Assembly: GCA_958009085.1 (NCBI GenBank)
Contig: OY253683.1
Span: 868,001-932,000 of the forward strand
Direction: 5' to 3'
DNA length: 64,000 bases
Source of the DNA: Protoeuglena noctilucae
Taxonomy: Eukaryota
In this document: positions 1-61,200 of the stretch, piece by piece
How positions within the stretch are numbered: the first letter of the stretch is position 1
Layout of the letters: every line of letters starts with the position of its first letter
Program-made: the position numbers and the translations under genes
The notes under the pieces: generated by a model
Seen by the model: only the letters and a program-made list of their open reading frames with translations
Told to the model about the DNA's origin: nothing
The model's database searches: none

Positions 1-3000
1 CCGGCCCAATCGTCACCCCATCACGCTTGCCCGCAGAGACCTGGGGATGGAGATGAACGGTGGAATGGCTGTCTGACTATATCAGATATGCTTAGAAATA
101 CATATGTAATGATATGCACCGTCCAGCCCACATCGCACACCCACTATAGTCTATACACCCACTTACCCCACTACACCCACCTACACACCCACTCCACACC
201 CACCACCCCCTTCATCACTACTCTCACATCCCCCATCACTACCCTCACCTTCCTCATCTCCTCCTTCCTCTGCTGCGCCCTCGTCCACCTCGCAAACGCC
301 TCCAATTCATCACACATCACACATCACACACATCCCATTCACTACTCTCTCTACTATTCTCACCTTCCTCATCTCCTCTTTCCTCTGCTGCGCCCTCGTC
401 CGCCTGGCAAACGCCTCCAGTTCGTCCGGCCGCACCATCAGCCCCGCTGCACTCCTCAGTATTTGTGCTTCCAGCTGCACCTCGGAAATGTGCTCTCGCA
501 AGGTCGTCAGCTCCCCCTGTGCCAACTCGATTTCTTGAAGGAACTCCTCGCGCAGTCGGTCAATCTGGGGGGGGGGTATGAGAAGGGGGGAGGGGGTGGG
601 GGTGGTGGGGTGAGTGGTAGCGCTGCAAGACATGCACACAATCCTATTGTCCACAAACATCAACCACTCTCGTTCCACTATCATTTCAAATCCCCCACCA
701 CCCATATCTCCTCACCTTCACGTCTTGAACGCCTCCCCTCCCACACACATACTGACCATGCCCAGTTTCACAACTACTTCTAATATTACCAGTATTGCGA
801 ATATTATTTGTCAATTTCCACTTCCAATCTCCTCACCTTGGCGTCCCCCTCCATCTTGAACGCCTCCCCGCACACCGCCCGCACCCCCATCTCCGCCACC
901 TGCCGCTCATACTTGTCCACCCGCACATTCCTCAACAACAAGAGCTGTTCGGCTAATTTACTCGCTTCCCCGGCCCCCAGCCCCAGCGCCTTGTCTCTGG
1001 CCGCAGCTTCCTCCCCCACCCGCACCGCCACCGCGTTAAACGCCCTTCTGGCGATCTCCTCTTGCATAGACACGCCCTTGTACTGCTGCAGCTCGATCTC
1101 CATGCGGCCGATCTGGGGGAGAGGGGGGGGCAAATGGGAGGGGTTGGTTTGTTAAGTGTTCGTGCTTCTTTAGTGGTTATCATTTTAATCACATGCCGCA
1201 TGCGACTCGATCTGGGGGGATAAAGGAGAAGGGGAACTGTTGTTTAGTGTTGATGATGATTCGAGCGACAAAGACGGCTGCAACTTTGGACCTATCCAGT
1301 GATGCATCTTATGTTGACATTATCATTAATCAAACATGTAGTACTACTTATCAACAACACCCACTCGCCTTCTCCTTGTGCTTTTCTAATTCTTGTATCA
1401 AATGCCGGTGGTCCGCCCGCGCCTGCTCCGTCAGCGCGCGCCTCTCCGCGTGCAGCTCCTGGATCTCCGAGGCACGGGCAGCCAGGTCCTTGTCGCGGGA
1501 CGCGAGCTCGTCTTGCAGGTCGCCGATGCGCCTGCGATAGGGAGATATGTGGAGGGATGGGGAGGGATGAGGGACGAGAATACCGCCAGTCGCATTAGAG
1601 CATGCAGTGGTGAGAGGGGGATGAGGGGCTGTTCCAGGCCACCAATGCCCGCCTTTCCTTTCCCACCCACCCATGCATCCAAACCTCACCCACTCCACCC
1701 TATGCACCCCGTCTCACCCCATCCCATCCCACTCACCCCACCTCACCCACCCCACCCCTCCCACCCCACCCATTCACCTCATCGCCAGCTTCAGTTTCTG
1801 CTCCTGCACGTCCTCCCCCCCCCCCAGCTTGGCCCGCAGCCTCTCCACTTCCGCTGCCATGCCCCGCCCCTGTGCCTCCGCGTGTGCGAGTGCGGCAAAG
1901 AACGGCACTCGGGTGTCTTTGGTGGGGGTCCAGCCAGCAGGGAGGGGCTCAGAGATGTCAGTGGCGGTGACGGTGCTGTGGGGGGTGGGGGAGGGGGGAG
2001 TGTGTGTTATATGGTGAGATGGTGCTTTGAGGTCAGGGAGAGAGGGGGGAGGGGGTCGGAGATGTCAGCGGCGGTGACGGTGCTGCGAGTAGCAGGGGGA
2101 GGGGGGTTGGTAAGGGAGGGGGGTGGATGAGAGAGGATGAGCGAGACGAGAGACGGTGGTGTAAGGAGACTGTATCAGCGAGGGTGCAGAGAGGGTGCTG
2201 CAGTGGGCAGGAACACAGAGGAGAGCACGGTTCAGGCAAATGAACCCTTTGATGCGGGCAGCTAAGAAGGATACCAGCTCTGTTACGACCCTCCCTTGTG
2301 CTCCGAACAACGCCACCCCGCCGAATGTCACCTGCCGACATATAAAGCGTTGTGCAGCTCGGCCATGATGCGCGACATGAGTCCCTGCAGCGCCCCGAAG
2401 GCCCCCGCGGACAGCAGCTCCCGCATCAAGCCCACGAAGCAAGCGAGGCGCTTGGCGGAGATCGACGCGGTGCCCGTCCCCGCGCCCGGCTCGCCCGCCG
2501 CGGCCAACGTCTCCTGAAGCATAATCTGCGGTGAGAGAGAAATATGCGGAGACTGTCGGGAATGCTGCAAACGCGCGGACGCGGCCGAGGGGGACGCGCG
2601 ACGCCGACAGGTGCGAGCGAAGAGGCCCGCGCCGACCGCGCTCGATGCGGCTCGCGGCGACAGATGGACCGTAGCTGCACGGCATTCGACAGATGGTAGA
2701 TACGGGAACGGACGGCCACTCCATCGCGGCGCGTGTTCGGGGGAGACCGCCAACGATGCGGCGACCTCCCGCGCGACGTGGTGCCGTGGAAGACAGGTGT
2801 TACATTGTCTTCGATCCAGAGTTCTGCCCATACCGCGATGCGCACCTCATATTGGACCGCGATGGAGCGCGCCGGCCCCTTGGCCTGCCGGACCGCGCCC
2901 GACATGCATGCCCCGGCCCCGCCGCGACGGCTGCCTCCCCGAGGGGCCCAGGGCGAACGCGGGCACGGTCGTCGCTATCCTCGGATTGCGACGCAATGGA

Positions 3001-3040
3001 ACGCGGCTGGAGTGCGGCAGAAGAAACGCTCTCAACACGC
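1..3040 (-). CDS. Multi-exon coiled-coil protein, function unknown (runs off the window start; 5' end approximate)
   Basis: Spliceable E/R/K/A-rich exons at about 364-564, 837-1112, 1369-1531, 1778-1975 and 2333-2514 (e.g. IDRLREEFLQEIELAQGELTTLREH, RRIGDLQDELASRDKDLAARASEIQ), bounded by GT/GC donors and AG acceptors. Confidence 0.65.
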
Positions 3041-3342: not shown

Positions 3343-5983
3343 TCAGTGGGGGCCGAAGCCGAGCAGGGCGATGCCCAGAATTCCGATCAAATAAGCAAAG
3401 AACATCTCAGCGCGCGCGCGGAAGGTGCGCGGGGGCCCGTAGTGGAGCTCCTCGCCGCAGCGCTCGCCGTCGTGGTCACAGTGCTCGCCCTCCAGCGCCG
3501 GGGAAGGGCGGCCGTGGTGGTGCGAACCGAACTGCAGAAAGGAACGACGGAATTGCAGCGATTGAGACGTCGCGCGGGCCCCGGCGCGGGCTCGTCGGCG
3601 CGATAACAAGCCGCTTTCAGCTTCATCGCCCATTTCCGCCCCAACCCGGGCCCCGCTGCGCTCTCACCTCGCGCGCAAGGATCTCAAACGCGCCTACGTA
3701 GATGAATGTGCCGCAGGAGAGGCCCTGCATGACGGCCGTGAGGGCCGCGGACTTGCCGGTGAGGGCCATGCCGATGAAAATGGCGACGGGGGAGGAGAGG
3801 ACGAACGGGAGCATCCACCAGGCCGTCTCGAAGCGAGAGGTGCCGTCCATGAGGAAGCGGGAGGCCTGCGGAGTCGAGCGGGATGGAAACGTGTCACGCA
3901 GAGGGCTGGGTCGGGCGTGCGAGGTGCAAGGTGCGAGAAGCAACGCTGTAAGCGGGCACGCCTATCCACCCGCGTCTCTCGCTCACCAGGGAGATGGAGG
4001 CGAAGGCCTTGTGCCCCGCGACGCCGACGAAAGTAGTCAAAGCGTCGGCGGTGGTGTTGGCAAACCCGATGGCGAGGCCGTCGCCGATGAGGGAGTGCAC
4101 GAGGATGGCGCAGAGGATGGCGATGCTGCCCGTCTTCATCGCGGCGCGCTCCATGAAGTCGTTCATGCGCGCGTGCTCTGTGTTGGGGAAAGGGAGATGT
4201 GTAAGATGTTGAGAGATGCCAGGAGGAGGATCGTGAGACGTGGCGTGATTGCGACTGTTACACACGCACACACGCCCCGGTGCGCGATAGGTTTGACAAG
4301 CGAGACGTATGCAGAGATTAACCGCCAGTTACAAAACCCTCCCTACAAGCACTGCCCCACCCCCTCACCCTTCTGCGCCTCGACGTCTGCCGACGCCGCG
4401 GGCCCCGGGAAGGTGGCGCGGATGGCCGTGACGTTGCAATTCACGTCCTGGTGCTGGAAAATGATGCCTGCAGAAGCGGGAGAGAGGCATTGATGAGCAT
4501 ATGATGCTGGTGACAGTACCGAGTGACGCTAGCAGTCCTTTGACATGTGCGACCATCTATGATGCAAAGATGACACATAAAGAGAGCAACACCGCGACTC
4601 ACGGTCGACGAAGAAGACGATAAGGAAGCCAACCGTGGCCATGACGGGCGCCAGAGGGTACTGGGCCTTGAGGGTGAGGGAGTCCTGGGCGTCGATGGCG
4701 TCCATGAGCACGTGGGTGAGGCCCACGGCCAGGAAGACACCGCCGCTGGGGGGGAGGGGGTGGGGGTGAGGGTGAGGGTGGCTGAGAGGGTGGCAGCGGG
4801 GGTGGCGATAAGGGTGGCAGTGGGGGCGGTGTGATGGGTGGCAGTGGGGGTGTTGACGGTGGCAGTGAGGGTGGCAGGGGCGGGAGTGGCAGTAAGGGAG
4901 GCAGCGGGGGTGGGGGTGAGGGTGTCAGTCAAGGTACGTCTGCATGTGCCAACCCACACCCCACCCACCTGAAAATGTTGAGGAGGGTGAGGGCGCGGTT
5001 AGCCCTTCGCCCGAGGAAGACCGTGCCGAAGACGGGGATGCAGACGCCGACGACGGCCTCCGCGAGCATCGCGAACGCCAGGCCGACCTTGAGGTTGCGA
5101 GAAGCCTCGCTCCCGTGCGACCGGAGGCGCCGGGCGGGCGCGGCGAGCTCGGCGAGGGCGGACGCGTCATCGGCACCGGCGTCCGCCGCCTGGCTAGACT
5201 GCTCCGTCAGGTGCGAGCAGTCGAGCGCTTGCGTCTGCGAGCGGGACAAGTGGAGCAAGACAGTGGACGGTGGTGTTGGCTTTGCGGCGCAGTCGCTCTC
5301 GTTGCTTCGTCAATCGCTCTCGTTGTTTTTGGCAGTCGGGGGTAGATGAGAGTCGCAAAGCATTGGCATCTGCATGCGTGGACCAATGGCATCAGCTAGG
5401 GCCTCACCTGTGGGTTTGGCAGTGGGAGGGCGTCGGTGGGCACGAGAGGGCCGTCCATGGCGAGAGCGGGGTCTGCGGGCGAGGGCGGGCGCTTTATATG
5501 AGCGAAAATAACCGAGAATCTGTGCGTAACGGGGCGCGGCGGGGCGGCGCGGGCGCACCTCCGCGGGTGGCGAGGGCGCTGCCGTGCGTCAAGGCCATCG
5601 GGGCCGCCATCGCGCTCGGCAGGAGCAGGAGGAACATGCCGAGCACGAGGACGCCCATGGAAGGGAGGACGAGTAGGGAGCGGACGGAGCGGGGCACGGC
5701 GCGCTTCTCCGTCGGGGCCGTGCACTGGCGGCAGCGGCCGCACATGCGCGACGAGCACGGGCGCGTGATGCTCTCGCGGGCGGCCCTGGGAGAACGGGGA
5801 ATGATACGAAGTTGACAGATGGGAGCGCGGCGCGTGCGCCGAGGGGCGCATCCGGGGGCCACGGATGGGAAAGCACAGTACGACGAGCCATGACTCACTT
5901 GAGCTGCGCCTGGACGCGGGCCATGGCATTCACGGGCATGCCCTCGCACGCGCAGTGCTGGTGGCGCGCGGCGGAGGAGCACA
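3343..5983 (-). CDS. ZIP (SLC39) family zinc/iron transporter, multi-exon (start approximate)
   Basis: Exon motifs LTLLNIF/GVFLAVGLTHVLMDA, YPLAPVMATVGF, ILVHSLIGDGLAIG, GHKAFASISL, QGLSCGTFIYVGAFEILARE. TGA at 3343-3345. Confidence 0.9.
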
Positions 5984-6754
5984 TCGCGGCTGCGGGGGAG
6001 GAGGGGGTGGGAGGCGGGCGTGGGTGGAGGAGGGAAAGCGTGGGGGGGTTCCAGGGGCTGCCGTCAGCCCTACGGACGCGAGCACGACCTTTTGCGTGTA
6101 AAAGCAATGCTGTGGACCAAACCGCGGGCGGCGTGGGGCCAGAGAGGGGTCAGAAAAGCTGCTCGGAGGTTTGTGCTCAGCGGTGGAGGCGGAGCCCCCC
6201 GCGGAGAGGCCCCGCAGAGCACCACCACATGGCTATTGGAAAAATAAAGCTCTGCGCCCGACATCAGGCGCGGAGGGCCTCGGCATTTGACGGTGGCGCG
6301 AGCCATCGTGGGAGGGCCGCTCCCGCAGCGCCTGGTCGCGGACGGCCCAATACAAAGGTCGCGATGTCATCTTTCTGTTCCGCATGATGCCGAGAAAGCG
6401 GCTCTATCACGATGCGTGGACGGGCCGAGCGGGAGGCCGGGGGCGGCAGCAAACGTTTCCGCAAAAGGGGCGCAAACCGGCCCGGCGTCGCTTGCTTTCA
6501 GACCAAGGACTGCCGGGCGGGAGCCGACGGCTCAGAGGGTGCGTGGGAAGCCGAGGAGGCGGGGAGGAGCGCGAAGGGCTGGTCAGCTCACCGAGTTGGC
6601 ACACGTCCTCCTCGCTGTTCGCGACTAGCAAGTAGAGGAAGCGTTTTCAACAGCGAGGGTGGAACAGCCAGGCTAAGTTTGGTCACCGCCCAAGCGATGC
6701 CCTACGTCAGATCGCGCAAGAGCCGAGCCGCTCGGAACACGTGCGTGCAGGCCA

Positions 6755-9440
6755 TCAGCCCAGCACCCCCGTGCGCGTCCCCGCGCCCACGCGACCCGTG
6801 TTCCGGAACTCCTGGACCCGCGCGATGAGGTCCTTGTTGATGCGCTTCTCGTCCTCCGTCATGAGCACCACCTGGCGCAGCTTCGCGTTGGCCTTCATCT
6901 GCTCGTTCAGCTCCCGGCGCAGATCCTGTGAGACACGCGCGGCGAGAGCGTCCCGAGCTGCACCCACGCTGCGCGCGCCGCAGCCCATTCATATAGTGTG
7001 CATAAGAACCACTGCTTGGCCTCTCCGATCCCCTTATCACCTGCTGCTTCCTCTTCTCTGCCTCCCTGACCCTCTCCCGCTCCTTTTTGGCTTCCTCCGC
7101 CTCCGCCTCGAGCCGTTTCCCGTACGCCCGCCCCTCGGCCTCCCTCGCCTCCTTCGCCGCCCGCTTCTCCTCCAACTGACGGTCCAGCTCCCGGCGGAGG
7201 TCCTCGCGGCCTTTCGCCTGAGAGGGCAGAGCAAGCGTTGTAAACGATAGAAACGATTGCGAGCCCAGCAATGTGATGCAGCCGACCGTGCCACCCAGAC
7301 ACGACACCTGTGCTCACCCGCACCAGCGCGAGCCCACGCCACCCATCTGCACCCATGCCACCCTCCTCAGCACCCACCCCAACCCCCACCCCTCACCCAC
7401 ACCCACGCCACCACCCCCCACCACTCCCCAACTACCATCCCCTCACCAACGCCTGCTTCCTCCTCTCGTCCTCCGCCCTGTCCTGCTCCTCCCTCTCCTT
7501 CAGATACCGCTCCTGCACTTCGGCGCTCAGCCACTCGCGCCCCGCCGGCAAGTCCCTGGCACGCGCCTCCACCCGCGCCTGCCACTCGCGTGCCTTGGCC
7601 AGCCTCTCCTCTCTCGCTTTCTGCTGCCGATCCATCAAAGCCTCTTGCTCCCGCATGTACGCGATCTCGTCCTCCACCTGCCGCCGGCGCTCGTCTGCGC
7701 GGAGTCGGAGCGTCACCGCGTTCTGCTCCGCCACCTCCGCCAGGCGCTCCCTGGGGAGAGGGAGAGGGGCGGGGAATGGGCGAAACGATGGGTGGGAGGA
7801 TGAGAGATCGTCAGTGGGTGGGTGACGGCAGAGCGAGGTAAGCAGTGGCATGCTGACCGCGCAGGTCTGCCCTCATCATGCACCTCTCCCTGCATCCATC
7901 TACCACCCACCCCACCCCCCCTTCACACACACCTGGCATCTTGCTTCCTCTGCATCTCCTTGGCCCTCTCGGCGCGGTACTCCTTAGCCATCGACGCCAG
8001 CAGCCCCTTCTCCTCCTCCAGCTGCATCCCGCGGATGGCCGCACGCAACGCACGCGTCTCCTCTACTTGTGCTTCCCGCTGGTGGCGGAGGAGCTCAGCG
8101 GCCTCGGCGCGCTCGCGCTTGCGGGCCTCTTGCTCCGACTCCCAGGCCCTGGGGGGAGGGGAGGGGGGTGGGGTGGGGTTGGGGTTGGTTGGTTGTTGCA
8201 AGCGGGGGCAGTCGCAGTTGCAAGCAGGGGCGAGGTCGGTGGTAGCCAAGGTGACATGAGGGCAGTGGCTGACGCTGGCAGGGGCAGTCGCAATCACTTG
8301 CATCCTCCATCTCTACCTCGAACACATGCACGCACATGCACACACACGCACACCCACACACACCCAATCACTTCACGTCCCTCATCTCCATCTCGAAGCA
8401 AGCACACACACACACCCCAACAAGTACACCCTGACTCTGTACTCACTTGACATCCTTCATCTCCATCTCGAAGTACTTCTTCGCCTCCTCCTCCTCGGCC
8501 GCCATCCTCGCCTCCCTCTCCGCCACCTGCCGCGCCAACGCGACCCGCGTGGCCTCCCTCTCCCGCAGCAGCCGCTCCTGGCGCTGCCGCTCTTCTTCCT
8601 CCGCCACGCGCTGGTTGTACGCGGCCAGGCGAGCCCACTCGTCCTTCTCCACCACCTGAATGGGGGATGGGTATGAGAGTGGGTGGGTGGGTGTGAGGCG
8701 AGAGTGGGGTCAGCTGTTGGTGCTAGAGGGGGAGGGACAGGGGCGACGGCAGTAACAGCCCACTCGTCCCTCTCCACCAGTAACAGGGTGCACGCATCCC
8801 ACCTCTCACCTGTTGGCGCTGGAGGGAGAGGGAGAGGGGCGGGGGCGTCTTGCCCGACAGCGCGGACCGTATGCGCTCCTCCAGGATGCTCAGGTGGCCC
8901 TCGTGGATGGGGCCCGACGTGCGCATCAGGTCGTGCACCTCGCGCGCGATGATCTCCTGCGCGCGCACGTCGTCCGCCTGGCCCTGCGGGGACGTCCAGG
9001 GTTGTCTAGAAGTGACGTCCAAGCAAGTCATCGGACCTAGCCATAAGTGCAGTGCAATCGGGGAGTCACAAGCGACTCGCCTGAAACTTCTCGCGCATCT
9101 TCTTGATCAGCGTCGCGATGAGGACGTTGAGGGGGTCGGCATTTGCACCCTGGGCAGAGGGTGAAGAGACTGTGCCTGCTTTATGCTTGCATTTGCTAAT
9201 TATCGGGTGGGCCCGGAAGCATGGCAAAAGCATGAATGCATGCGTCTTCGAGTGTCGCACATCGATGCGAGGCAGCTGGGAGCAACACTGCGGGGCTCAC
9301 CGAGGAAGGGGGCTTGCCGGAGCGGGACGGGCGGGCCGCAGCCGTGGGGGGCTTGGAGCCGCTCACTCCCAGGCCGGGCGCGGCCCCGGCGTCGGCAGTC
9401 ACCATATCTGCGCGTGTGCTGCGAGGAGGGCGCGGCACGG
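6755..9440 (-). CDS. Trichohyalin-plectin-homology-like coiled-coil protein, probably ciliary, multi-exon (5' end approximate)
   Basis: E/R/Q-rich exons (DEWARLAAYNQRVAEEEERQ, EDLRRELDRQLEEKR) and a C-terminal LMTEDEKRINKDLI. TGA at 6755-6757. Confidence 0.7.
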
Positions 9441-10454
9441 GGCTGTCCGCGGCCGGACGGGGGGCGGGCAGGCGTGCGCCTGTGCGTGCATCCCCGCGCG
9501 AGCTCCGTCTCGGGTCAACGGTCCACGGCAACGTATTGGACGTCAACACACAGCGGATGCATCAGCAGACGGTGTGCGTGGCCGCTTCTGCAAGCGCCGG
9601 TCGGGTCGTTGGCACGCCGCCCTGCATGTGCTCGCTGCGCGCGCTCACCCGTGCGTCGTGGGGGAAGAGGGGTGAGGCGTGTGGTATGAAAATTATACCG
9701 GGTAACGACACGGCCAGAAACCTGCGGAGAAGGGTCGCGGCGCGGCCAGGGTGGGCGCGCGATGCCGGGCATGCGTGCGCAGAAGACCCCGTCCATAGGA
9801 TGCGCGCGGAATGCGCCGACACGCACAGCAGTATATCACTTCACATCCCAATGTACCAGCCGCTGTGTACTAGGCACCTGGGCCTGCGGGCGAGGCAGTT
9901 CAGCAGCGCAGAGGGCTGGTCCCGCGCGCACAACACCGCGGCGCGCTCAGGTCGACAGCAGCGCGATGCCTTGTTACTGGATGTCTGCGAACCGTCGGCA
10001 AAGGGTCTCGAAGGGCCGACCATGGCGGTGAAACAGGTGACCTGCATGTTGCGCCACCAGAAACTGGAATGGGACAAGCACAGGAGAGTCTGGAGACACG
10101 AGCGCGTGTTTTGCATTCTCGGCAGCTGGCGACGGCGTGCTCTTTAGTCCCTCGCTAGCACATCCATCAGAATTGCTCGGCCCTGCATCATTCGCGACCC
10201 CAATCCCTCACCTGACCTCGCGTCTCTCTGCACAGAACCCTTGCAAGGGTATCTCTCGCACGGCTGGAGGATGTGGGGCGTGGGCAACCCGGAGCATCGC
10301 ACAGCGCCCGCCCCGGAGGTGGACGCCAAAGGGCGGACGGTGTGGAAGGCGAGCGACGCTGCGAGGACACGTGCCGCATAGCTGCATAAGTCCTGCGCCC
10401 GCCTGTGTCACTGCGCGCCCGCGCCGGGGACGAGATGCCGCCCCGCACGCGCAC

Positions 10455-13400
10455 ATGTCGCCTGCCGGGCGCGTAGATGCGCGCGCGCCCCGCCTCCGTC
10501 GCCCCGCGTCGCCCCCGTCGCTTTTTACGAATGTACGTTGTAAGCTTGCCTCCTCTGTAAACACCCTAGCGCACCTAGCGCGCTCCCTCCGCGCATTGTG
10601 TGCCTCCCCATCCATCCCGGCCCTGCGCGCGCTCCTCGCAGGTCGAGTTCCCCACGGAGCGCCACGACAGGAGCTTCCAATCGACGATGCAAGTGCTTAT
10701 GGGCCACGAGTCCCGCGCCAACCCCGCCCCGCTCCCCGTCCACGCCATCACCCGCGCCTTTGAGCGAGGGGGCGCGCCCAAGGCGAGCGGAGCGACTCAT
10801 CGACGATTTCCATCGCTTCATAATTACTCAGACATTAACATCCGCACATCAGCATCGAGTCCCGAGGCGCAGTCACTCTAAGTGCGGCCGACACACGATG
10901 CGCGCCCTTCGCCCACGCCACACCAAACCATGCTCATCTGCCCGCAGCTGGTGCGGCAGCTGGGCGACCCGGACCCCGAGATCCGTCGGCGCGCGAACGA
11001 GGCCGCGGCGGAGTTTCTGGAGACTCCCCTGGGCCGTGCCGGGTGCCTGGAGGCGGGGGTGGTGGAGGCGCTGGTGGGGCTGCTGGGGGAAGACGACGCC
11101 CGCGTGCGGTGAGAGCAGCAACAACGCAGTAGATGAGACGAGGGTGAAGTTGATAGAACCTTGCTGAGAGGAAAAGGGGTGAGGAGGTGCTCTGGGTGTG
11201 CAAGACGGGTGGGTGAGCTGGGCTGGTGCGGTGGTCAGTGACAGCGGTGCACCCGCCATGTGCCCAGCCATGCACCTCGCCCTTAGAGCACCCAAATGAT
11301 AGATAAATACCTCACCTCGTGATTTACAATGCTCTTTCCAGTTGCCAATCTACCCCCCCGTCGCTCTCTCCCCCGCAGTTCCCGTGCGTGCACCAACCTC
11401 GCATTGGTCGCCAAGACCCAGGCAGGGGCGGCGGCGTGCGCGGCGGGGTCCGGTCGCTTCTCAGCGGTGGCGGCGCTGGTCGGGCGCTTCGAGGATTCCG
11501 ACGAGGGAGTGCACCGCGCAGCCCTGCGGGCGCTGGGCGTCGCGTGTATCGCCCAGGAGTGCGCCGAGTGTGTCGTGTCCCTACGCACGGTGAGGGGGTT
11601 ACTTCGACTGAGTCGGTAAGCTCGCAATTCCGTATACTTAGTAGTAATCTGTCTTTGTCACTGGACTAACGACAGCGACGGCGGTCACGACACAGCTGCG
11701 TCCACTCCTTCACCACTCCCCCTTATGTCCTATGTTCGATCTTTCCATAAACACAAGTGTTCTTTCTCTTCCCTCGCTCCCATCGCCTCACCTGTTACCC
11801 CACTCCCCCAAACCCCCCACGCCAGGTCATCCCCACGCTGCTCCACTCCCTCTCCACCCCGGGCCCCGTCGACCTCCAGACCCTCCAATACAACGTCCTG
11901 CGCGCATGCTTAACTTCTCGTCACAACACCGACGCGCTGGCTCAGTGCCTGGACCGACCAGGGGCCGACGGTGTTGATGTTTGCACGTCCACGCTATCGC
12001 GACACTGCACGGGGCTCACGCCCCCCACGGCGGCGCTGGCGGAGGCGGCGGCGGGCACTCTCGCGGCGCTGTGCGCGCGACTGGACGCCAAGGGACGCGC
12101 GGTGGCGGCCAGTGCCGTGCCGCTGATAGTACGGTGCATGGGGGCTGCGGACCTCCCGCTGCGTTTGGCAGCCACGAGGGCCGCCTGCGCTGTGTTGGCG
12201 TGTACGGAGGGCAAGCAGGCGTTCGCGGAGTGCAACGGCACGCTGCCCCTCCAGAGCATGCTGTTCGTCCGGCATGACCCGCTGTTGCTCGTGGCGCTCA
12301 AGTGAGTGGATGAGGGGGTAGTGGGGGTGTGGGTGGAGGGGAGTGGGGAGTGGCTGGGGGAATTGGGAAGGGTTGGGAATCTGGATAGGTGTGCGAGGGG
12401 ATTGCTGTTGTGTATAGATATCGATTGGTTATCATCGCTACCACCACCACTCCCCACCACCCACCATTACTCCCCACCACCATAACTACCCATCACCACC
12501 CAACAGTCACCACCATTCGCCTCCCACCCCCCCAGCTGCGCGTGCCTGGCGTCCGAGGAGCCCTCGTGCCGCAAGGTGCTGCGTCGGTTCAAGATGCAAG
12601 TGCAGCAGATACGCGCGATGACCAAGGACGTGGATGTGGAGAGGGCGGCGGACGAGTGCTTGAGGTGAGAGGGGGGATAGGTAGCGGTGGTGGATCTATC
12701 TCATCTCTCTCATTCCTCTGTGCAGGCAGTTCGACTTCTCCACTCCACCCACTCACCCCATCCCATCTCACTTAACATGTCATCCCATCCCACGTATCAT
12801 ATCATATCATATCCCTTATCTCCCCACGCAGGCAATTCGACTTCTCCACGCGGCCCTTCGACCTCAAGGCCGGGTACCGCCCCGCCGTGGCAGAGCACGA
12901 TGTGGACCGGGTGCTGCAACGTGCTGAGGAGCCCGTGCTCCGGTGGTACAGGGATCACGTGGAGGCTGAGGACAAAGCACGAAAGGAGAGGGTGGAGAAA
13001 GAGAGGGCGGAGTTGGAGGCGGTGGTGGGGGAGAGGTTGAGGGAGAGGGGGGAGGCGAAGTTAAGGGCAAGGCTTGAGGGGGGGGGTGGGGGTGGTGATG
13101 AGGGTGTGGGGAGTGATGAGGGCATGAAGGGTGGGGAGGGTGTGGGGAGTGATGAGGGGAAGGGGGAGGGTGGCGATGCTGCGGGTGGGGATGGGGGTGA
13201 GGGTGGGGAGGGGGCGGGTGGGGATGGGGGTGTGGTAGATGCGAAGGGTGGGGAGGGGGGTGAGGGAGAGGGGGTGACGGGCGATGAGGGGGCGAAGGGT
13301 GGGGAGGGTGCTGCTATGGAGGGAGAGGGTGAGGTGAAGGGGAGCGAGGGGGTGGAGGGCGATGGGGGGAATGTGGAGGTGACGGGAGGGGATGCGGCTG

Positions 13401-13471: not shown

Positions 13472-13695
13472 GGAGCTGAAGGAGCGGGGTAGTTATGGTG
13501 GGTGTCATTTGCTGTTGCTTTTTAATAAAAAAACAGTGCGGTTTAATGTTAACATATTGGGTTTGAAACACTGCTTTCATCGCTTTGCGTCTTGTGACCG
13601 TCTCTGGCCCTTTCAAACAACAAGGCATGGCACACGCATTCACCCTTAACACCCCCTCACTTCGTTTTCTACATCTCCCCATCTCCCCCACCCCT

Positions 13696-16715: not shown

Positions 16716-17155
16716 CGGAGCCGCCGCGACGGAAACCGCGATGTCGCGCGGGGAACAGGCGGTGGATAGCTGCGCGCTGCGGCCTCCTTGCGCGGATCGG
16801 GGGGTCCACGAGTGCACACGGCGCCACAGGGCCAGCCTCATGGACGCGGGGCCGCGGCGACGAGGGTGGCTGACACGCGACGACGAGGGGATGCAGCGCG
16901 TGTCCTGGACGGATATGCCGCCCGACGCGCCGGTGGGACGGGCATGAAGCGGCTCGCGGGCGCCGGTTTCAGGGCGCTCGATGCGCCAGAGGGTGCCGAA
17001 GTGCGTCGCCGGGCCGGGGCTTTTTGGGTCGGCGTCACCGGATTCGGTCTCAGAAATGTAGTGCTAATAGATGGGCGAAGTTTTGGGAGGGGCCGTATAC
17101 TGTACCTGGACGCACGTTTCCGCATAGATATACTGTGATTTCGACATTTCTCATC

Positions 17156-17275
17156 GTGAGCGGATCAAACCACCGAGAAAATACCTGGTCCCATAAAAAC
17201 CCAGAAGTCAAGCTCGGTTGGGCTGGATCAGTACGGAGGTGGGGGACCACTCTGGAACCTCCAGTGTCCGCTTGC
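17156..17275 (+). rRNA. 5S rRNA gene (120 nt)
   Basis: Helix I GTGAGCGGAT/GTCCGCTTGC, Box A-like AGTCAAGC, CAGTAC element, Box C-like GGTGGGGGACCAC, GGAA motif. The layout matches eukaryotic 5S. TATA-like GATATAC lies ~30 nt upstream. Confidence 0.92.
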
Positions 17276-17285: not shown

Positions 17286-17451
17286 GTCTCCTAATCGAGT
17301 CGCGGCGGTGCATTTACCCTACCCGGTCGCGGCCTTTCCCCGACGCGGGCTCCTTTTTGCGCCAGACGTTTTACTTTTGCATGTCTTGCCGGAAAATCGG
17401 GCCGGGCCGAGCGCGGATGCAAAATTTATACCCCTAGCCCTCTGCAGCCAT

Positions 17452-19167: not shown

Positions 19168-19367
19168 NNNNNNNNNNNNNNNNNNNNNNNNNNNNNNNNN
19201 NNNNNNNNNNNNNNNNNNNNNNNNNNNNNNNNNNNNNNNNNNNNNNNNNNNNNNNNNNNNNNNNNNNNNNNNNNNNNNNNNNNNNNNNNNNNNNNNNNNN
19301 NNNNNNNNNNNNNNNNNNNNNNNNNNNNNNNNNNNNNNNNNNNNNNNNNNNNNNNNNNNNNNNNNNN
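19168..19367. other. Assembly gap (N run)
   Basis: About 200 N bases. Confidence 1.
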
Positions 19368-43651: not shown

Positions 43652-43656
43652 CTGCA

Positions 43657-43705
43657 CTGGGTTCTGATGGGACCAGGTATTTTCTCGGTGGTTTGATCCG
43701 CTCAC
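43657..43705 (-). pseudogene. 5' part (nt 1-49) of the split 5S rRNA gene
   Basis: Matches 17156-17204 and has the canonical CCCATCAGAAC loop. Confidence 0.9.
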
Positions 43706-44014
43706 GATGAGAGATGTCGAAATCACAGTATATGTATGCGGAAACGTGCGTCCAGGTACAGTATACGGCCCCTCCCAAAACTTCGCCCATCTATTAGCAC
43801 TACATTTCTGAGACCGAATCCGGTGACGCCGACCCAAAAAGCCCCGGCCCGGCGACGCACTCCGGCACCCTCTGGCGCATCGAGCGCCCTGAAACCGGCG
43901 CCCGCGAGCCGCTTCATGCCCGTCCCACCGGCGCGTCGGGCGGCATATCCGTCCAGGACACGCGCTGCATCCCTTCGTCGTCGCGTGTCAGCCACCCTCG
44001 TCGCCGCGGGCCCC
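43706..44014 (-). repeat. Upstream spacer of the right 5S unit; right boundary of the island
   Basis: Reverse complement of 16848-17155. Confidence 0.95.
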
Positions 44015-44063
44015 GTCACGCGACCCGACCCGTGCGCCTCCCGTGCGCGAGCCGCCGTGGTCC

Positions 44064-52693: not shown

Positions 52694-53870
52694 ATGTTCA
52701 GTCATGAAACTTGGTCGCAGGCCGTCGGCCTTCTCGCCTACGCGTACTTCCAGTATGCGTTCGGAGCCCTCATCATGTTCGTCGGCAGCCTGACGTGCCG
52801 CTTCCCCTCACTCGCGGCGCGTCTGCCGTCGTTCATGACGCTGCACCGCGCCTGCGCGGACCCCGTGCTTGGCGGGAAGGGTTTCTCGTTCGAGGACGCG
52901 CTGATTAACATCGGCTTGTTCGCAGTCTTCGCGATCCAGGCGAGGGCTGCGGGTGCGGGTGCGGCTGCGGGTGCAGCTCGTTGTTGCTGCAGGGAAACAT
53001 CTTTTCCCGCGGAATCCGCAGCTGCCTGCACCGCTGCGACGCGTCAGAACGATACTGTCTCCTGTACCGCGTCCGCAGCACAACGTGATGGCGCGCGAGA
53101 GCTTCAAGCGGTCCCTCAAGTCGGTGCTCCCCGCCAGCGTCGAGCGCTCGCTCTTCATCATCCTGGCTTGCATCACCATCCACGCCCTCCTGCACTTCTG
53201 GCGGCCCATGACCGGGATCGTCTGGGCCCTCCCCGCCGCGCTGCACGGCCCCGTGTGGGCCTTGCACGCCGTCGGCTGGGCCATCGGCCTCATCAGCACG
53301 TTCGCCATCGACCACTGGGAGCTCGCGGGCCTGTCCACCGCTTTCGGCAAGCGGCCCGAGTCCAAGCTCGTCGTCCGGGGCTTCTACGCCGTGGTGAGCG
53401 CTCGCTGTGGCCGTCAGAGACAGCCAAGCTTCTTACTTGCACGCGACAGTGGTTGCGCCATCTTGGCAACATACGGTGCGACCATGCGCAGTCACAGTTA
53501 CCCCAACCACACCAGTAGCACCTCTCTTGTCTTATTCTCGTCCCAGGTGCGCCACCCCCTGCACCTGGGCAACCTCGTTGCCTTCTGGGCGGCCCCCGTC
53601 ATGACCCACGGCCGGCTGCTCCTCAGCGCCATCGCCACCGCCTGGGTCGTCTACACCGTCTACCAGCTCGAGGAGCCGGAGCTCGTCGACTCTTTGGGGA
53701 ACGAGTACCGCAAGTACCAGCAGGCGAGTTGCTGAGGAAAGCAGTGCAATCGCTACGATCGAAGAGGTGGCTGCCAAGGTAGTGGACCTTTCCATTCTCT
53801 GCAGGAGGTCCCCGCGCTCTGCCCCTTCTGGCCCATGTCGGGCGCCAAGTCCGCCAAGAAGAGGTACTAA
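52694..53870 (+). CDS. MddA/Nurim-like membrane methyltransferase (ICMT/PEMT superfamily), 4 exons
   Basis: FAIQ|HNVMAR, VERSLFI, FWRPM, STFAIDHWELAGL, VRHPLHLG, FWAAPVMTHGRLL, LEEPELVDSLGNEYRKYQQ|EVP. Confidence 0.85.
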
Positions 53871-54478: not shown

Positions 54479-57400
54479 ATGCCGTGGTGCGTGGCTCGTG
54501 CGCCGCGCGCAGCGAACCGCGGCTGCCTCGCCGCGCCGCGCTGCCCGTCGTCGCCTTGTATCCATCTCGAGCGACGCTTCGCGAGCCCGTTTCCGAGATG
54601 CACGCCCCCGACGCCCCCGCAGGCGCTCCACAAGCAACCAGGGCCCCGCGCGCGCGGGCACCGGTCCCCGCACGCCCCGCCCGCCGTCTCGCGACGAATC
54701 TTTGACATCGTCCGCGTCGCCTCCGCCCGACCCGCCGCCCTTCCGGGCCCCGCGCCGCGAGCTGTCGGAGGACGCAGCGGCCGCGGCGCAAATGCTCGTG
54801 GATGTGCTGGGGATGTCCAAGACCGAAGCCGAGGCAAGTTGCTTACATGCGTTATCTATATTGCCAGTCACATAGTTCACTTCGTCGGTCCGAGTCGACC
54901 CTTTCCGCACCGCCATTGGTCCCAGGACGTGCTGCAGCGTTCGGACGACAACGTGCTGAGCCACGGTTGGGTGTATAACTCCGAGGAGGTGCTGGGTCCT
55001 TTGTTGCGGACCCTTTTCGACCTCGGACTGACGCCCGACGAGGTCCGCCGGATGATCCTGGCCCAGCCCACATTGATACGGTGAGTGAGGGATGAGACGC
55101 GCATGCATGTGGGTCAGTGGGTGGGTGGGTGTTAGGTGGGTAAGTGAGTGCGATGAGTGAGTTGTCATGGCGTCGACTGGTGAGCAATTGTGGGGCTGGC
55201 GTCGCATGTGCTGTAATGGTCACCCCCTCATCAACTCACCCCCACCCCCACCCCCACTACCACCACCCACACCGCCACCTCACTCACCCTCACCCTCACC
55301 CCTCACACCACCCTCACCCCCACCCCCACTCCCACCCCCATCCACCCCTCACCCTCACCCCCCCACCCCACCCCCCCAGCCGCAAGCCCGACCTTGTGCC
55401 CTCCAAGGTGGCGGTCCTTTCATCCCTGGGCGTCCCCTCGTCCCGCATGGGACGCGTATTGGTCAAATGCCCCCAGCTTTTGAATCTCTCCACCGACACC
55501 GTCACACAGGCGGCCGAGTGGATGCGGGTGCAGGCGGGCATGACCCCCTCGCAGGTGCAGCGGGTGGTGACGGCCATGCCACGCGCGCTCACCTACTCCA
55601 TCCCCGATAACCTCGAGGCCAAGAGGATGCTGCTCACGCAACTGGGTGAGGGAGATGGGTGGTTATATGGCTGTTTGGGGTTCTTTTTGTTGTTGGAATG
55701 GTTTGGTTGTGGTTGTCTGAGGCAGGGTTGCGTTGAGGGATGGCTGGTGGCGAATGGCAGCTGGGTGATGGGCACAGCTGCACCTACCCTTGCAGCCGTA
55801 CCCACACCCACACTCATCCCTCTCCCTCCCTTCCCCCCCAGGCTGGTCCAAAGACGACGTGACCCGCACCCTCGCCCGCTTCCCCCAAATCATGGGGCTG
55901 TCTCCATTGAACATCGTGGGGCAAGTGCTGCACCTGCAGCGATGGGGGCTGAGGCCAGACGAGGCTGCCACCATGCTTAAGGAGTACCCATGCCTGTTCG
56001 GGTACCGGTGAGGGCGGGGCGGATGTAATGGGGTTTACTGATAGTGCTATCTATCAAGGTTACTGATAGTGCTATCTATCAATACCCGTGCCTGTTTGGA
56101 CGACAAGGCTGTGGTAATGCGATCCATACACAGTCACGCAACATGCCAGTATTGCATACAATAATAATACAATAACTCTATAATACTTACTTCTCTCTCC
56201 CCCCACTCCCAGCCGCTGCGTGCTGGACGTGAAAGCGGTGGTGCTCCGCTCCATGCTGGGACTCCCCTTCACCTCCGCCCTCCGCTTCCCCACCTACTTC
56301 GGATACGCCACCGACAAGCGCGTGCTGCCGCGAGTCGCCTTTTCAAATCACATCGTGGGGAAGGGGCCGATTGACGTGGACCCTGCGTGGGAGGCGCTGG
56401 CGTGGCCGCCCCCGGCCACCGACGCTGCCGTTGCCAGGCTCACAGGTGAGAGGAAAGGGGGGCATGTAGATATAGAGGCTGCAATTGGTTTGGTTGTTCA
56501 GTCGTCAATTACGGCTGGTTTGTTGTTACTTGGATCTGCCGCCCCCGGCCACCGACGCTGCTGTGGCCAGGCTCACAGGCGAGGAGGGGAGGTGGATGGG
56601 GTTTGGTGAAGTATGTAGATGTAGATGTAGATGAAGAGGTTGCAATTGACTGTTCAGCTGTTGGGATTGGTTGTTCAGTCGTTTACAAGGGGTTGTTGTT
56701 ACTTGGTTTAGATTAAAAATGTGACCTGGCATTCCAAACACCCCCACATTGCACCCTTTTCACCCACACCCCCACCACTACCTCCGCAGACATGCCCACC
56801 CGCACCGCACACACACACACACACACACACCACCCCACACCTCTCACCCACCCCCAACCCACCCCCTCCCCGCAGACATGCTCACCCGCGCCACCACCGC
56901 CCCCGGCGCCTACCTCCCCACCCTCGCCCCATCCACGCCCCTCCGCCCCATCGCAAATGACGAGGATGATGATGACGATAACGACGATGCGTGGTCGTGT
57001 TTGCTAGACCCCTACCATCTCAGCCCCAGCCCCAGCCCCAGCCCCAGCCCCAGCCACGCCCGCCCGCCCTCCCCGCAACCGCAAACGATGCCGACACAGC
57101 TGCCACTGCCACTGCCACCCCACGCATTCACCCATAATCCATCACGCCCCCCGCCCCTATCCACCCCGCACACCCGCTCGCGCACCCCCACTTCCCGCGT
57201 TGTGATGGATGCGCCTATGGGGCGAGGGTGGGCGGCGCAGGGTGGATTGCAAAGCCGCGGGAGGGGTGCGGAGGGGGCGGGGGAGGGGTTGGGCGCGTAC
57301 GCGGGGTTGCCGGATGCATTGGTTGTGAGGGCGCAGGGGGTGCGGCGGCCGGGGGGGGTGGAGGAGGTGCCGTTTGGGGAGGTGAGGGGGTTGGGGAGGG

Positions 57401-57794
57401 GGGAAATGTGGGATAAGTGAAGATGTGTGCATTGGGGAAGTGGGTGTGTCACTCTCACCCTGCCGCTTACCAGCTCTGCCACCCACACCTGTTCCCCCTC
57501 TCACCCGGTCATCCACCCCCATCTCACCCTCTTCCCACTCACCTCCTCTCTCACCACCCCACTCACCCCCCCCCCCCCCTCACCCACCTCCCCCAGACCG
57601 GCCTCGACTTCGGATCTTTCGGCACATGGCTCACCCCCCCCGACGATGTCTTCCTGGAGAGACTTTCGAAAACGACCGTGCAGCCCGTGTCTCGGCAGGC
57701 ATTCTGGCAGTTTCGCGAGGCGTGGGTGGCGCGCAATGGGCCGGTGCTGCGGTGGTGGCAGAGGGAGTGGGACAGGGCGGACGCGGGGGAATGA
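54479..57794 (+). CDS. mTERF-repeat organellar protein, multi-exon (start approximate)
   Basis: LGLTPDEVRRMILAQPTL, RVLVKCPQLLNLS, MPRALTYSIPDNLEAK, RFPQIMGLS, FPTYFGYATDKRVLPR, DDVFLER. Confidence 0.85.
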
Positions 57795-58231
57795 GTATAT
57801 TGGGAGTGGAGTTACTTAGGGGGAGTGTTCGGGTGTTTGGATGGGGGGGTTGTTGGTGGGGGATGAGGGAGTGGGACAGGGCGGACGCGGGGGAGTGAGT
57901 GCTGAGGGGGAGTGGAGGTTCATTTGAAAAGGGGGTGTTGAGTGAGGGGAGAGTGAGGGGGGGGTTGTTTGTGAGGGGGTGGGATGAAGCGGATGTGGGG
58001 GAGTGAGGGCATGCTTGTTGCTCTTTGTTTGAAATTCGAGACACGTGCTCCGATACGTTTGAAATGCTGCAAAAGAGGCGTTGCCTTGGATCTTTGCATC
58101 GCACAGCCTGGGGAATCACCCACGCATCACGGTTGAGCGATGCGCCCATCGCCGCGCTCCCAACCACGTCCCCCGCATTCAATCACTCCCTCCCCAACTA
58201 ATCATAACTCTCTCTCTTCTCTTCATTCTCA

Positions 58232-61200
58232 TCACCCATTCCCCGCACCCGACCCCTCCTCCTGGATGGCTGGCAGGTCGGGGGGCTGACGCGAGGCGCG
58301 GAGACTGGCGGACGTCTCGAGCGTGGCTGCGAGGAGAGGGGGGAGAGAGAGACGAGTGGTGATAAGAGTAATGGAAATGAGGGTGATTGGGTGGCATGAC
58401 AGCACCATTACCCATGCCCCATGCTCACCCTCCAAAGCCCCCCTGCTGCTCAAGTCCACGCATGCATGCCCCAACAGTACATCGACACGTCATCATTGCC
58501 CACTATCAATATCAACATACCACTCACCCTCCGACTCTCCCCCGCTGCTGAGTTCCGAGTCCGCTGCCGAGGGACGCGTCTCCAGGAAGCTGGGCACGTG
58601 GCTGGGATAAGACGCGCCGGGGGACTGGGGGGGAGGATGGGACAGGGAAAGAGATGTTTAATATCAACCATACTGATGTTATTAATGTGATGCTGTATCA
58701 CTGTGTGACGGACTATGCACCCTCTCCCCCCCCCCCCAAGCCATGCGTCTCCTCACAGCCACTGTTTGTCACCCCCACTCTCACAACCTTCCCCGTGTCA
58801 ATCCCCACCGCCAGCTCCTCACCTTTTCACTCTCCGACTCCCCCCCACCCTCCGACACCCCCCTCCCCCGCCCGCTCCCGCGCTTCCCACCCCGCCCCTC
58901 CCCCTCGCCCCCGGACCCCCCATCCCCCCTTGCAGCGGCCTCCAATGCCCTCTCCGCCTTTTCCAATTCGCTATCCTCCGTACCAGCCCACGAGGTTTCA
59001 GTAACTAAACCCCTCGCACCGCCCCCGCGCCCCCCTTCGCCCCCCCGCCACCGCCCCTCGCTGTTGACTCCGTTGTTGTCCTTTGCGCCGTTGCCGGGGC
59101 GGTGCCTGGCGTTGAGGCCCAAAGAGTGGGGGCGCTGGAAGGCCTCGGGCGGCACTTGGCCCTTTAACTGGGGCGGGAGTAAGGGAGGTGGGTAGATTAG
59201 AATTAGTTAGTACTACTAGTTAGTGCTGTTGATGGAAGCTGTCTCAATGGAGAGGCACTGGCGGTGTTTACAATATCAATACAGTCAATCATGTCTCAGA
59301 TGCAAGGGCAGTCACCCATTTCACTCCCTCACTCATCCAACACACACCCCCATGAACCACTCTCACCTGCGCCATGACCCCCAGGTCCCCCATGCGCACG
59401 GCGATGTACTTGAGCATCTCCCAGATGTCCTCGTCTTTATTCCCCCAGTCGAGCACCTGCCCCCGCATCTTAGGCAGGCGCTGGAAGAGGTGCGTGATTG
59501 CATTACGCGCCTCGGCCAACACCTCACGACGGTCCTTGGTGGCCTGGGGGGGGGGGGGTGTGGATGGGTGGTGATGTTTGATAACGATGATACTTGATGG
59601 TGAGGGGTTAAATGGATGGTGATGTTAGTTTGATAACGATGATACTTGATGATGTAGGGATGGGGGAGGGAGAGCATGGGGTTGGTGGGTGTGGAAGAGT
59701 GGGATGGGCCGGTGGTTGCGGTGATGGGTGCAGTACCCAACTCACTCCCTCTCATTCCTTTACACCTCCCCGCGCATCCATTCATATCTCTGCTCCTCCG
59801 CACACACTCCCCCTAAACCACCCTTGCCTGTATGCGCGCCTCGACCGCCTGCGTGAGCGCCCCCTCCCTCCCCTCCAAGTCACTCTGCGTCTTCTGCCTC
59901 TCCCCCAACAGTTGCGTCTGCGTGACCAGTCTAGTCGTCGCTCTCTCCCCCTCGTCCTGGATGCTCCTACGCATCTGCTCCAGCCGGGCCATCGCGCGGT
60001 CCAGGCGGCGCTTCAGCTGTGAACGCGTGTCGACCAATGTCTGTGGGTGGCGAGAGGGGTGGTGGTGGTGGTGGGTGGGAGCGGGTGGCTGAGCTAACTG
60101 CGCGTGTCGACCAATGTCTGTGGATGGGGGGTAAGAGAGGGAGGGGTGGTGGTTGTGGTTGAGAGTGGCAGTGGGCTGCACTGATGCTGGGATCGCAACG
60201 CCGCTGGTCACCCATCGCCAGTCGCCAGTCACCACCCGTCGCATGGCAGCAGCGTCACAGTTGCACCCTCATGCTGGCGTGGCCACTCCCTCTTCGTCAA
60301 ACGCCGCTGTTCACCTCTAAGTCATACCACACTATCTTCACTCATCAAGTCACCTGGAACCTGCGTATCATATCCGTGGGGTCCTCGAATTCCGAGTACT
60401 TGGTCAGGCACGTGTCGACGAAGGACGAGTAGCCCTCGTGCTTGCGGATCTCCACCAGGAAACCCGCGCGGCGACGCATCAACATCTGCAGTTAATGTAA
60501 CGAATGCGAGAACGGGGTCAGAGCTGGGAAGCGATGACTAACGGTTGATGTGCATGTGTTGAGGTCTTGACTCATATAAACTACTCATATCATCAAATCA
60601 GTCATTGCTTATCATATCCATCATATTCACCCCGTTCCACTCGCCTCCAGCTCGTCGTGCAGCCCGCTGATCTGGTCGTCCAGCGCCACGTTCTCGGCCG
60701 CCAGCTCGGAGGCGCGCTTGAGCATCCCGGCGCGCTTGCTGTCGTTGTCGCGCACGAACTGCTCGAACTGCTGCATCAAGTTCTGAAGACGCTCCTCCTT
60801 CTCCTTCTGCGGACGGGGCCGGCGCAGCGAAGCGAATGAGCGCGAATAAATGAGCGATAGCCTCGACACTGTGTGCCCGCTCGAGCGCGCTCCCGCGGGA
60901 CCGAGAGCGCTCGCTGCTTGACCCTGTGTCTTTATATTGCTATGCTGTGCATCTACGACCCGCAACTCGCCTGCAATCGCTCCAGGCGCTCGCATTTGCG
61001 CATCCGCTTGACGAACTCCTTCCGCTTGTCGTCCAGCAAGCGCTCCAGATGCTCCAACTGCCGCTGCTTCTGCATCAACACCGTCGTCTGGCTGCTGAAG
61101 CCGCCCGCTGCGGGAGAGGGGACGGGGGGCGCTGGTGCGGCGCCGCATGTGGGGCAGGGAGGGACCGCCACGCGCGCCGCGCGCTGGGCCAGCCCATGCG

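Follow-up and report, generated by a model that had tools for sequence, protein, structure and literature searches.

The window considered here is a stretch of 64,000 nt from the unicellular green alga Protoeuglena noctilucae (assembly GCA_958009085.1, contig OY253683.1, positions 868,001 to 932,000 of the forward strand), part of a 26.3-Mb, 27-contig genome with a GC content of about 65% that turns up in marine sequencing runs. Its plastid rbcL places it among the green algae, the nearest match being 93% identical and the nearest named one 90%. Some of its predicted introns contain a nearby direct copy of the edge of a flanking exon, and many of these copies, termed exon-edge echoes below, carry a decoy donor or acceptor site. 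A first-pass annotation, made from the sequence alone, had listed 18 copy/original pairs; all 18 exist and align at the coordinates given to within a few bases (positions are those of the window throughout), at offsets of 72-149 nt. Their scores run from 18.9 to 71 bits and are in every case above the best of 150 controls, for which the exons of foreign introns were used (12.6-18.7 bits); the weakest is the copy at 45262-45274, with 18.9 bits against 17.2. Two additional echoes, a 108-bp triple at 48945-49207 and the copy at 15846-15870, were found beyond this list. In total, about 15 of the 103 predicted introns of the window contain echoes, lying at 0.2-16 kb and 45-60 kb; none were found at 16-45 kb. 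Loss of the copies was looked for in DNA run X6, a separate read set, perhaps of the same strain (its study is shared with a possible source run). Three X6 contigs span the copies at 45166, 45262, 56083 and 60101 and keep all of them, with no other letters and no gaps; these four are therefore not assembly errors. Chance similarity arising from composition was ruled out by the foreign-exon, inverted and far-offset controls.

In the first 16 kb most of the echoes lie on the minus strand. The strongest (245-423, 71 bits) belongs to the donor at 363 of the predicted intron 41-363, with a copy at 245-308 that retains an intact GTGAG at 248 (offset 115). The donor at 836 (intron 565-836; echo 706-875) has a copy at 706-743 with a 10-nt deletion and a decoy GTGAG at 715, whilst the acceptor at 1976 (intron 1976-2331; echo 1952-2088) is repeated at 2059-2088 with its AG intact (offset 107). 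Two donor echoes occur in intron 8149-8446 (8295-8473), at offsets of 75 and 150, with exon parts alike at 24/27 and 22/27 positions. Intron 8656-8809 (8633-8830) is arranged differently: a copy of the downstream-exon start (8758-8779) lies 5' of a copy of the upstream-exon end (8711-8745), both decoy sites are dead and the exon junction reads CAG|GTG. As judged from its sequence, this intron is the sole candidate for intron gain by duplication, or may instead contain a dead duplicated mini-exon. In intron 14526-14803 (14640-14819), which has a GC donor, the near copy (14725-14747, offset 72) is identical over 23 nt and the far copy (offset 145) is decayed, the intron parts being about 67-69% alike. 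The exon-end copy at 15846-15870 in intron 15628-15962 (15846-15989, offset 119) has a dead decoy donor. On the plus strand, the acceptor at 12831 (intron 12665-12831; echo 12722-12849) has a copy at 12722-12743 with an intact AG (offset 106).

The echoes at 45-60 kb include those covered by RNA, for which contigs of runs X8 and X10 were used. Intron 45088-45350 (plus strand; echoes 45075-45358) of a nucleoside hydrolase gene (PF01156) harbours both a decoy donor at 45179 (offset 91) and a decoy acceptor at 45266 (offset 84, AG intact); RNA from X8 and X10 uses both outer sites, and the X6 contig over 44705-45827 is unchanged. In intron 46102-46332 (plus; 46233-46353) a decoy AG at 46253 (offset 79) is preceded by an identical pyrimidine tract, and X8 RNA is spliced at 46332. 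The donor at 48786 (minus; intron 48499-48786; echo 48670-48821) has a decoy GTGAG at 48674 (offset 112). The 108-bp triple at 48945-49207 (minus) is a fresh expansion over the acceptor of intron 48969-49281, in which the intron parts of the units are identical, both decoys have changed from AG to AC and RNA (X8, X10) is joined at 48969. Intron 56008-56212 (plus; 55985-56099), in an mTERF gene (PF02536), contains a copy at 56083-56099 (offset 98) and is spliced at its normal sites in RNA. In the same orientation, intron 56446-56875 (56405-56889) has a decoy donor at 56579 (offset 133, GT changed to GC) and a decoy acceptor at 56789 (offset 86, AG intact); an X8 contig piece begins at 56873 and the joint is a predicted one. 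A coding end with its TGA at 57792-57794 (plus; 57761-57898, offset 104) has a copy at 57865-57898 that behaves like the exon-edge echoes, as had been claimed, the match stopping 2 nt past the stop codon. Finally, the probable acceptor at 60041 (minus; 60023-60123), placed from sequence where the gene finder chose 60017, has an intact decoy AG at 60118 (offset 77), and the X6 contig over 59579-62000 is unchanged across this copy. The first-pass annotation had stated that the copies often include the splice site; the patch at 56083-56099 is exon sequence only and has none.

To place the window in its genome, 990 kb from 21 other contigs were added, giving a sample of 1.05 Mb. A gene finder trained on this sample predicted 1778 introns with a median length of 130 nt and recovered 9 of 11 RNA-confirmed introns; 374 of the predictions (21%) have GC donors, and the GC-AG introns 52940-53078 and 53724-53804 agree with RNA joints. 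The gene labels exosome subunit and DEAH helicase are presumed names that rest on motifs. A confident set of 1154 introns was defined by strong sites, a length of 70-600 nt and flanking exons of at least 60 nt; the sample-wide counts rest on these predicted introns and on a detection threshold of 20 bits. Copies of the own exon edge occur in 59 of 1154 introns (5%), as opposed to 0 of 1154 when foreign exons are used. The description of echoes as pervasive holds only within limits, with about 15 of 103 introns in the window and 5% in the sample as a whole, the window included. In 51 of the 59 the copy derives from the upstream exon (donor side) and in 10 from the downstream exon (acceptor side), two introns having both. 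With exon-only queries, the last 40 nt of the upstream exon match in 43/1154 introns (foreign 3/3462) and the first 40 nt of the downstream exon in 11/1154 (foreign 4/3462); sequence from 40-80 nt back from the donor matches in 4/1099, and exon-interior patches are accordingly rare (4/1099 and 3/939). Eight of the 43 upstream cases end short of the exon edge and were left out of later donor counts. An annotation-free count of direct repeats at offsets of 45-220 nt that are not multiples of three gave 4.9 per 100 kb; where the offset was 600-775, the density fell to 0.1 per 100 kb. Other eukaryotes, represented by 170 kb in 59 dereplicated loci out of 80 retrieved, had none, but this control is a rough one, as its loci all surround one gene and are of uncertain intron content.

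The echoes are direct only, inverted matches numbering 1-2 against 1-2 in controls. Hairpins between intron ends were also considered and rejected, as the 43 inverted self-matches at 20 bits proved to be 41 self-counted palindromes and 2 arm pairs. Junction-echo offsets span 46-218 nt and nearest offsets 46-191 nt, with 59 of 60 at or below 156; a preference for in-frame offsets was looked for and none was seen (13, 17 and 15 by remainder modulo 3). No junction echo lies closer than 46 nt (0/60), whereas intron-only repeats do so in 19 of 33 cases; short junction units are expected to be scarcer anyway, yet a rough correction still expects about six under 46 nt. Longer introns hold echoes more often: none occurs in the 304 introns shorter than 100 nt, but 14 of the 37 introns of at least 300 nt have one. 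Echo introns are CpG-poor, AT-richer and microsatellite-rich; more G-runs after the donor were looked for among introns of at least 170 nt and not found (2.0 versus 2.03). The echoes cluster by region, even among introns of at least 170 nt (permutation p 0.0055), and three consecutive introns of one gene on contig C8 each have one. Most of the echo-richest blocks (C3, C8, C14, C15 and the window) contain assembly gaps together with introns that are long, poor in CpG and strand-skewed; C1 and C9 are also interrupted by gaps but hold few echoes or none, and the lengths of adjacent introns correlate (rho 0.42).

The first-pass annotation had suggested that the decoys could allow splice sites to slide, and had proposed RNA as the means of establishing which copy is spliced. 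Contigs of X8 and X10 displayed 15 of 38 joints, and contigs lose rare forms; run X11, whose contigs are mostly unspliced or repeat, added no information. In all four echo introns with an RNA joint (45088-45350, 46102-46332, 48969-49281 and 56008-56212) the outer, original sites are used, the outer acceptor being chosen although the decoy AG is intact at 45266 and 46253. A joint at a decoy was looked for among the 15 of 38 joints displayed, and there was none. The decoys are nevertheless often competent in appearance: of 45 decoy donors, 31 lie above the 5th percentile of real donor scores, 19 equal or exceed the score of their real partner and 36 keep GT or GC, and 9 of 15 decoy acceptors keep their dinucleotide. 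A purge of decoy dinucleotides was considered and rejected, the difference between donors and acceptors not being significant (p 0.17). Use of the decoy donor would produce a frameshift or stop in 42 of 45 cases. Fossils of sites that had slid were sought and found at 1 of 991 donors, a coding repeat, and at 0 of 985 acceptors. No splice site was seen to have moved relative to the coding sequence, and the idea of sliding is not upheld.

The recurrence of local direct duplications of about 45-220 nt that leave decoy splice sites is supported; a special targeting of junctions is not. Intron-internal repeats occur in 56 of 1154 introns (2 foreign). Those that are intron-only, non-satellite and at offsets of at least 40 number 23 (foreign 1), of which about 7 read as parts of echo units. 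Uniform breakpoints predict intron-only, donor and acceptor classes in the proportions 0.6 : 1 : 0.75; the observed proportions are about 0.4-0.6 : 1 : 0.25, approximate values since detection differs between classes. On this approximate comparison, donor echoes are no commoner than general intronic duplication predicts, and acceptor echoes are about threefold rarer than expected. The outcome that the first-pass annotation had itself named as refuting its reading, junction-spanning duplications at no more than the general intronic rate, is thus obtained for donors. The duplications do lengthen introns, as the distribution by length indicates, but the claim that they build them is not supported, given the 55 of 60 introns that are still at least 83 nt long when the echo offset is subtracted, and an intron-gain geometry limited to one case.

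The most distinctive property of the echoes is an abrupt difference in decay between their exon and intron parts. Aligned by their exon part alone, 45 copies show an identity to the originals of about 91% over -30 to -1, 84-89% at +1 to +4, 73% at +5, 60% at +6 and mostly 30-45% beyond +7, so that the match ends 4-6 nt past the donor; retention at +1 and +2 does not exceed that of the exon part. In two stop-codon echoes the match likewise breaks off at the stop. The intron part of the unit, or spacer, which a tandem duplication must have included as well, reaches 59% identity after gapped alignment against 55% for shuffles. Only 2 of the 43 nearest units have spacers at least 80% alike, and beside the longest exon patches (41-49 nt, 93-98% identity) the spacers stand at 52-60%. 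In-register homology is nonetheless significant in 11 of 43 spacers (p<=0.05 each, combined 3e-7), and therefore whole units were duplicated, at least in those. The exon copies differ from their originals at 52 synonymous and 39 non-synonymous positions over the 45 copies, about 29 synonymous differences being expected by hand count; the type-weighted ratio is 0.24 (p 0.002 versus 0.5), with a per-type null that is rough because A/T third positions, in a genome with 88% GC at third codon positions, are enriched for recent exon changes. Two intragenic coding repeats, at 9605-10535 of the C17 block and 5672-6069 of the C21 block, have exon flanks 96% alike and unrelated introns, and by their sequence appear to present the same split.

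We infer that the echoes are relics of tandem duplication, similar to the 'mirage' minisatellites of amphioxus, that are kept fresh by exchange with the selected exon, a reading we hold with somewhat better than even confidence. General slippage or unequal exchange would make direct tandem duplications of about 45-220 nt, which is the pattern observed, and selection would retain those that leave the mRNA unchanged, namely those wholly within an intron or straddling one splice site with the outer site winning; outer-site use is shown by RNA in four introns, and selective retention itself is inferred. An upstream donor would easily outcompete its downstream twin, whereas a decoy acceptor lies upstream of the real one and would be riskier, which may be why there are 4-5 donor echoes to every acceptor echo; decoy donors within about 45 nt would not be tolerated. 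Here the counts are observed and the causes proposed. The intron parts of the two units would then drift apart, leaving the exon end and its copy as a short homologous pair with one partner under selection. Misalignment on this pair would give expansions, as seen in three introns, and contractions or short conversions could rewrite the copy from the exon whilst leaving the diverged intron parts alone; similarity would reach only +5/+6 of the donor, or the stop codon, because the constraint on the original ends there. The echoes would have no function of their own, but would lengthen introns and could swap the 5' part of an intron without moving it.

Three fresh products, at position 33818 of the C14 block, position 6112 of the C12 block and 48969 of the window, have intron parts identical to the real flank at 29-30 of 30 positions. 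At the C14 site the newest copy combines the exon part of an older decoy (22/22) with the intron flank of the real acceptor (29/30), and window 48969 is alike; the C12 product is a fresh doubling beginning at the exon end. The exon part of the new copy thus carries the variants of an older decoy in two of the three, the outcome expected from misalignment of an exon edge with an old copy. An extended form of the proposal, in which exon end and intronic copy form a lasting two-unit system of concerted evolution genome-wide, anchored by selection on the exon and passing sequence back into it, is possible but rather doubtful. Such a pair would expand and collapse, swap intron 5' parts without moving the intron and hold the copy as if it were under coding constraint (the ratio of 0.24).

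A number of observations weigh against maintenance by exchange. The spacers are indistinguishable from shuffles in 32 of 43 cases. Neutral duplication simulated through the same detector, with 60 scored per setting, gives a spacer identity of 0.70-0.72 with 75-83% significant, where 0.59 and 26% are observed, a mismatch that favours the proposal; but a 4-8 times faster change of intron DNA fits the simulation equally. Intron-only repeats are also patchy, with a median match of half the offset, and patchiness therefore needs no selected partner; likewise, pairs of decoys show the same split between exon-type (0.81) and intron-type (0.57) sequence. Conversion alone gives a ratio of at least 0.5, which leaves the synonymous excess unexplained, and a decoy that lies nearer does not always match more closely. 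When metagenomes were scanned with a helicase exon, the 80 relatives kept out of 483 had 72-84% amino-acid identity, too distant to serve as orthologues, and conversion is therefore argued indirectly. In addition, beyond 44-62 kb of the window the splice sites are predictions, and the loss of rare forms from RNA contigs bears on the use of outer sites.

Several of these points lead to the strongest rival, in which plain tandem duplication is followed by fast turnover of G-rich or AT-rich intron DNA, at several times the exon-like rate, and no exchange is needed. A rate factor of 4-8 reproduces both the spacer identity and the share with homology, the composition of echo introns is of the kind expected, and the split between decoys is explained as well. 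Despite this, we consider it unlikely, as the intron parts of some decoy-decoy and intron-only units are still 80-90% alike and many spacers are not simple repeats. A paralog clock for intron DNA was attempted and yielded only near-identical or saturated pairs; one dispersed pair of paralogs also speaks against fast turnover, with a divergence of 9% outside and about 9% inside coding sequence, though its DNA is GC-rich and not of the echo-intron type.

A second rival holds that the intron parts were never homologous: break repair just inside the intron would copy 15-60 nt from upstream and rejoin at a GTGAG-like microhomology, or would insert filler between target copies. The shuffle-like spacers, the sharp end of the match at GTGAG and the frequent patchiness of intron-only repeats are what it predicts, but we regard it as improbable. 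Polymerase-theta repair usually leaves inverted patches, and here these do not exceed controls; exon-interior patches are rare, the 11 spacers homologous in register and the existence of regular multi-unit arrays point to whole units, and spacers match only simple repeats elsewhere in the 1.05 Mb. More improbable again is that the decoys are functional and selected, either because they offer additional U1 sites, which would help splicing or protect long introns, or because they are occasionally translated. The retention of GT or GC, the decoys that score at least as well as the real donor and the bias of differences to synonymous sites beyond neutral expectation would agree with a function, whereas decoy joints are absent from those displayed, offsets are random modulo 3, decoy use breaks the frame, +1/+2 are no better kept than the exon part and only 5% of introns have a decoy at all. 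Finally, that the duplications create introns and let splice sites slide is highly improbable, for although echoes become commoner with intron length, intron 8656-8809 has a crossed geometry at CAG|GTG and both routes are documented in Drosophila (PMC2891723), outer sites are used, no slid fossils were recovered, the crossed geometry occurs in one intron among the echoes listed and most introns are full length without an echo unit.

A transposon or Introner origin of the spacers was likewise rejected on the evidence of their matches. A self-search of the 1.05 Mb gave 39 matches of at least 100 nt, all between places on the same block, and near-identical introns at many loci were not found. The Introner elements of a small marine green alga reportedly have direct repeats at the edges of the introns, and in this they resemble the present case; the echoes, however, form no repeated family and comprise 11-58 nt of exon placed at least 46 nt inside the intron, not short target-site duplications.

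Closer likenesses exist among known repeats at exon-intron boundaries. According to PMC3087553 and PMC3902484, amphioxus mirages, described at single loci (Adh3, troponin C, the globins BflGb6 and BflGb9, PGBD5), are arrays of tandem copies that span the boundary, 5' or 3', with units of 10-160 bp that are 81-100% identical, many with intact AG/GT and with splicing undisturbed; the clusters are unstable and length-variable, and unequal exchange and concerted evolution have been proposed for them. The algal echoes share the direct tandem copy across the boundary, the occurrence at both boundaries and the unit size (nearest offsets of 46-191, 59 of 60 at or below 156). As to splicing, the outer sites are used in all four echo introns with a joint, among 15 of 38 joints displayed by contigs that lose rare forms. 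Length variation was not seen where X6, one DNA run, covers the copies. They differ in having mostly two units, a donor preference of 4-5 to 1, a 46-nt floor and likeness confined to the exon part and splice motif, and in being counted over a genome sample of a unicellular alga; multi-unit arrays with whole-unit identity are limited to a few fresh ones. As most echoes lack identity over the whole unit, they are a variant of mirages and not members. In intron 7 of human F7, PMC1557585 describes a 37-bp variable-number tandem repeat (VNTR) whose first unit spans the exon-intron border and whose pseudo-donors further downstream, although competent, stay silent while splicing takes the most upstream donor. 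Competent downstream donors passed over in favour of the upstream one are found here too, the RNA basis being one donor case, intron 45088-45350; F7 differs in that its VNTR is a single, homogeneous one, lies in a long intron of a mammal and has a period shorter than the algal floor. The Rogers model, in which an intron arises when an AG|GT proto-splice site is duplicated in tandem (PMC2891723, PMC3087553), also yields short exon-derived direct repeats in introns. It places the downstream-exon start at the intron 5' end and the upstream-exon end at the 3' end, and the algal order is the reverse except in 8656-8809, the one candidate with crossed geometry around AG|GT among the echoes listed. 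Intron gain by duplication and intron sliding are known routes (PMC2891723, PMC3488318, PMC2812944). A literature search with limited reach into subscription journals, and without the original Adh3 mirage papers, turned up nothing at genome scale on echoes of this type in algae, and nothing on split decay.

Other features of the window and the sample are recorded for completeness. A perfect 54-bp array at 34964-35224 begins at a predicted donor, repeats AG|GTGAG five times and is followed by CTCAC and 19-bp arrays (35291-35507, 35729-35918); from its sequence it may be a recent donor repeat of the F7 kind, in a long predicted intron or at a gene end. Echo-rich genes contain long G-rich low-complexity stretches in apparent coding frames (45778-45943, 13084-13308, 47329-47516), which resemble intron 5' ends in composition; RNA covers 45918-46100 as exon. 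A 144-bp coding tandem repeat (6.7 copies) occurs at 37053-38020, with a related copy some 5 kb away at 42455-43098. The 16-45 kb stretch includes a 1.7-kb inverted repeat (95%; 17448-19167 and 19714-21425) around the assembly gap 19168-19367, and 98% dispersed copies pair 16843-17204 with 43657-44017 and 39100-39386 with 43369-43655. In exon 2 of the nucleoside hydrolase gene an in-frame TAG is present at 45420-45422 (plus strand), with homology to solved hydrolases continuing on both sides and X8 and X10 RNA contigs unchanged; it may represent a nonsense allele or read-through. A changed genetic code is unsupported, TAG being otherwise a stop (74 gene ends versus 5 internal; 4 TAG, 0 TAA and 0 TGA in coding-like context), and a tRNA-Gln(CUA) with the exact loop motif was looked for and none was found. 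Elsewhere, one tRNA is repeated six times at 1038-14592 of C24, near the contig start, with a spacing of about 2.4-3.1 kb, and tRNA genes lie within about 1.5 kb of the contig ends of C2, C7, C11, C17, C20 and C21.

The echoes are real, widespread (about 5% of introns in the sample) and of a known kind, with no evidence of intron creation or sliding; they show no new element and no new intron-making route. What is new and testable in them is the split decay, along with the bias to donors and the floor at 46 nt. The echoes indicate that introns in this compact genome grow by small duplications and provide a large natural set of twin splice sites, in which donor bias and floor report what the spliceosome tolerates. 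If fast intron turnover is the cause of the split, mutation rate varies 4-8 fold over 50 bases. If instead the copies are maintained through exchange with the exon, exon ends and their non-coding copies evolve jointly, and rate estimates, gene prediction and read mapping would be affected; and if lasting concerted evolution proved true, the rules by which a eukaryote with short introns chooses its donors would also be mapped by hundreds of natural twin donors at 46-220 nt.

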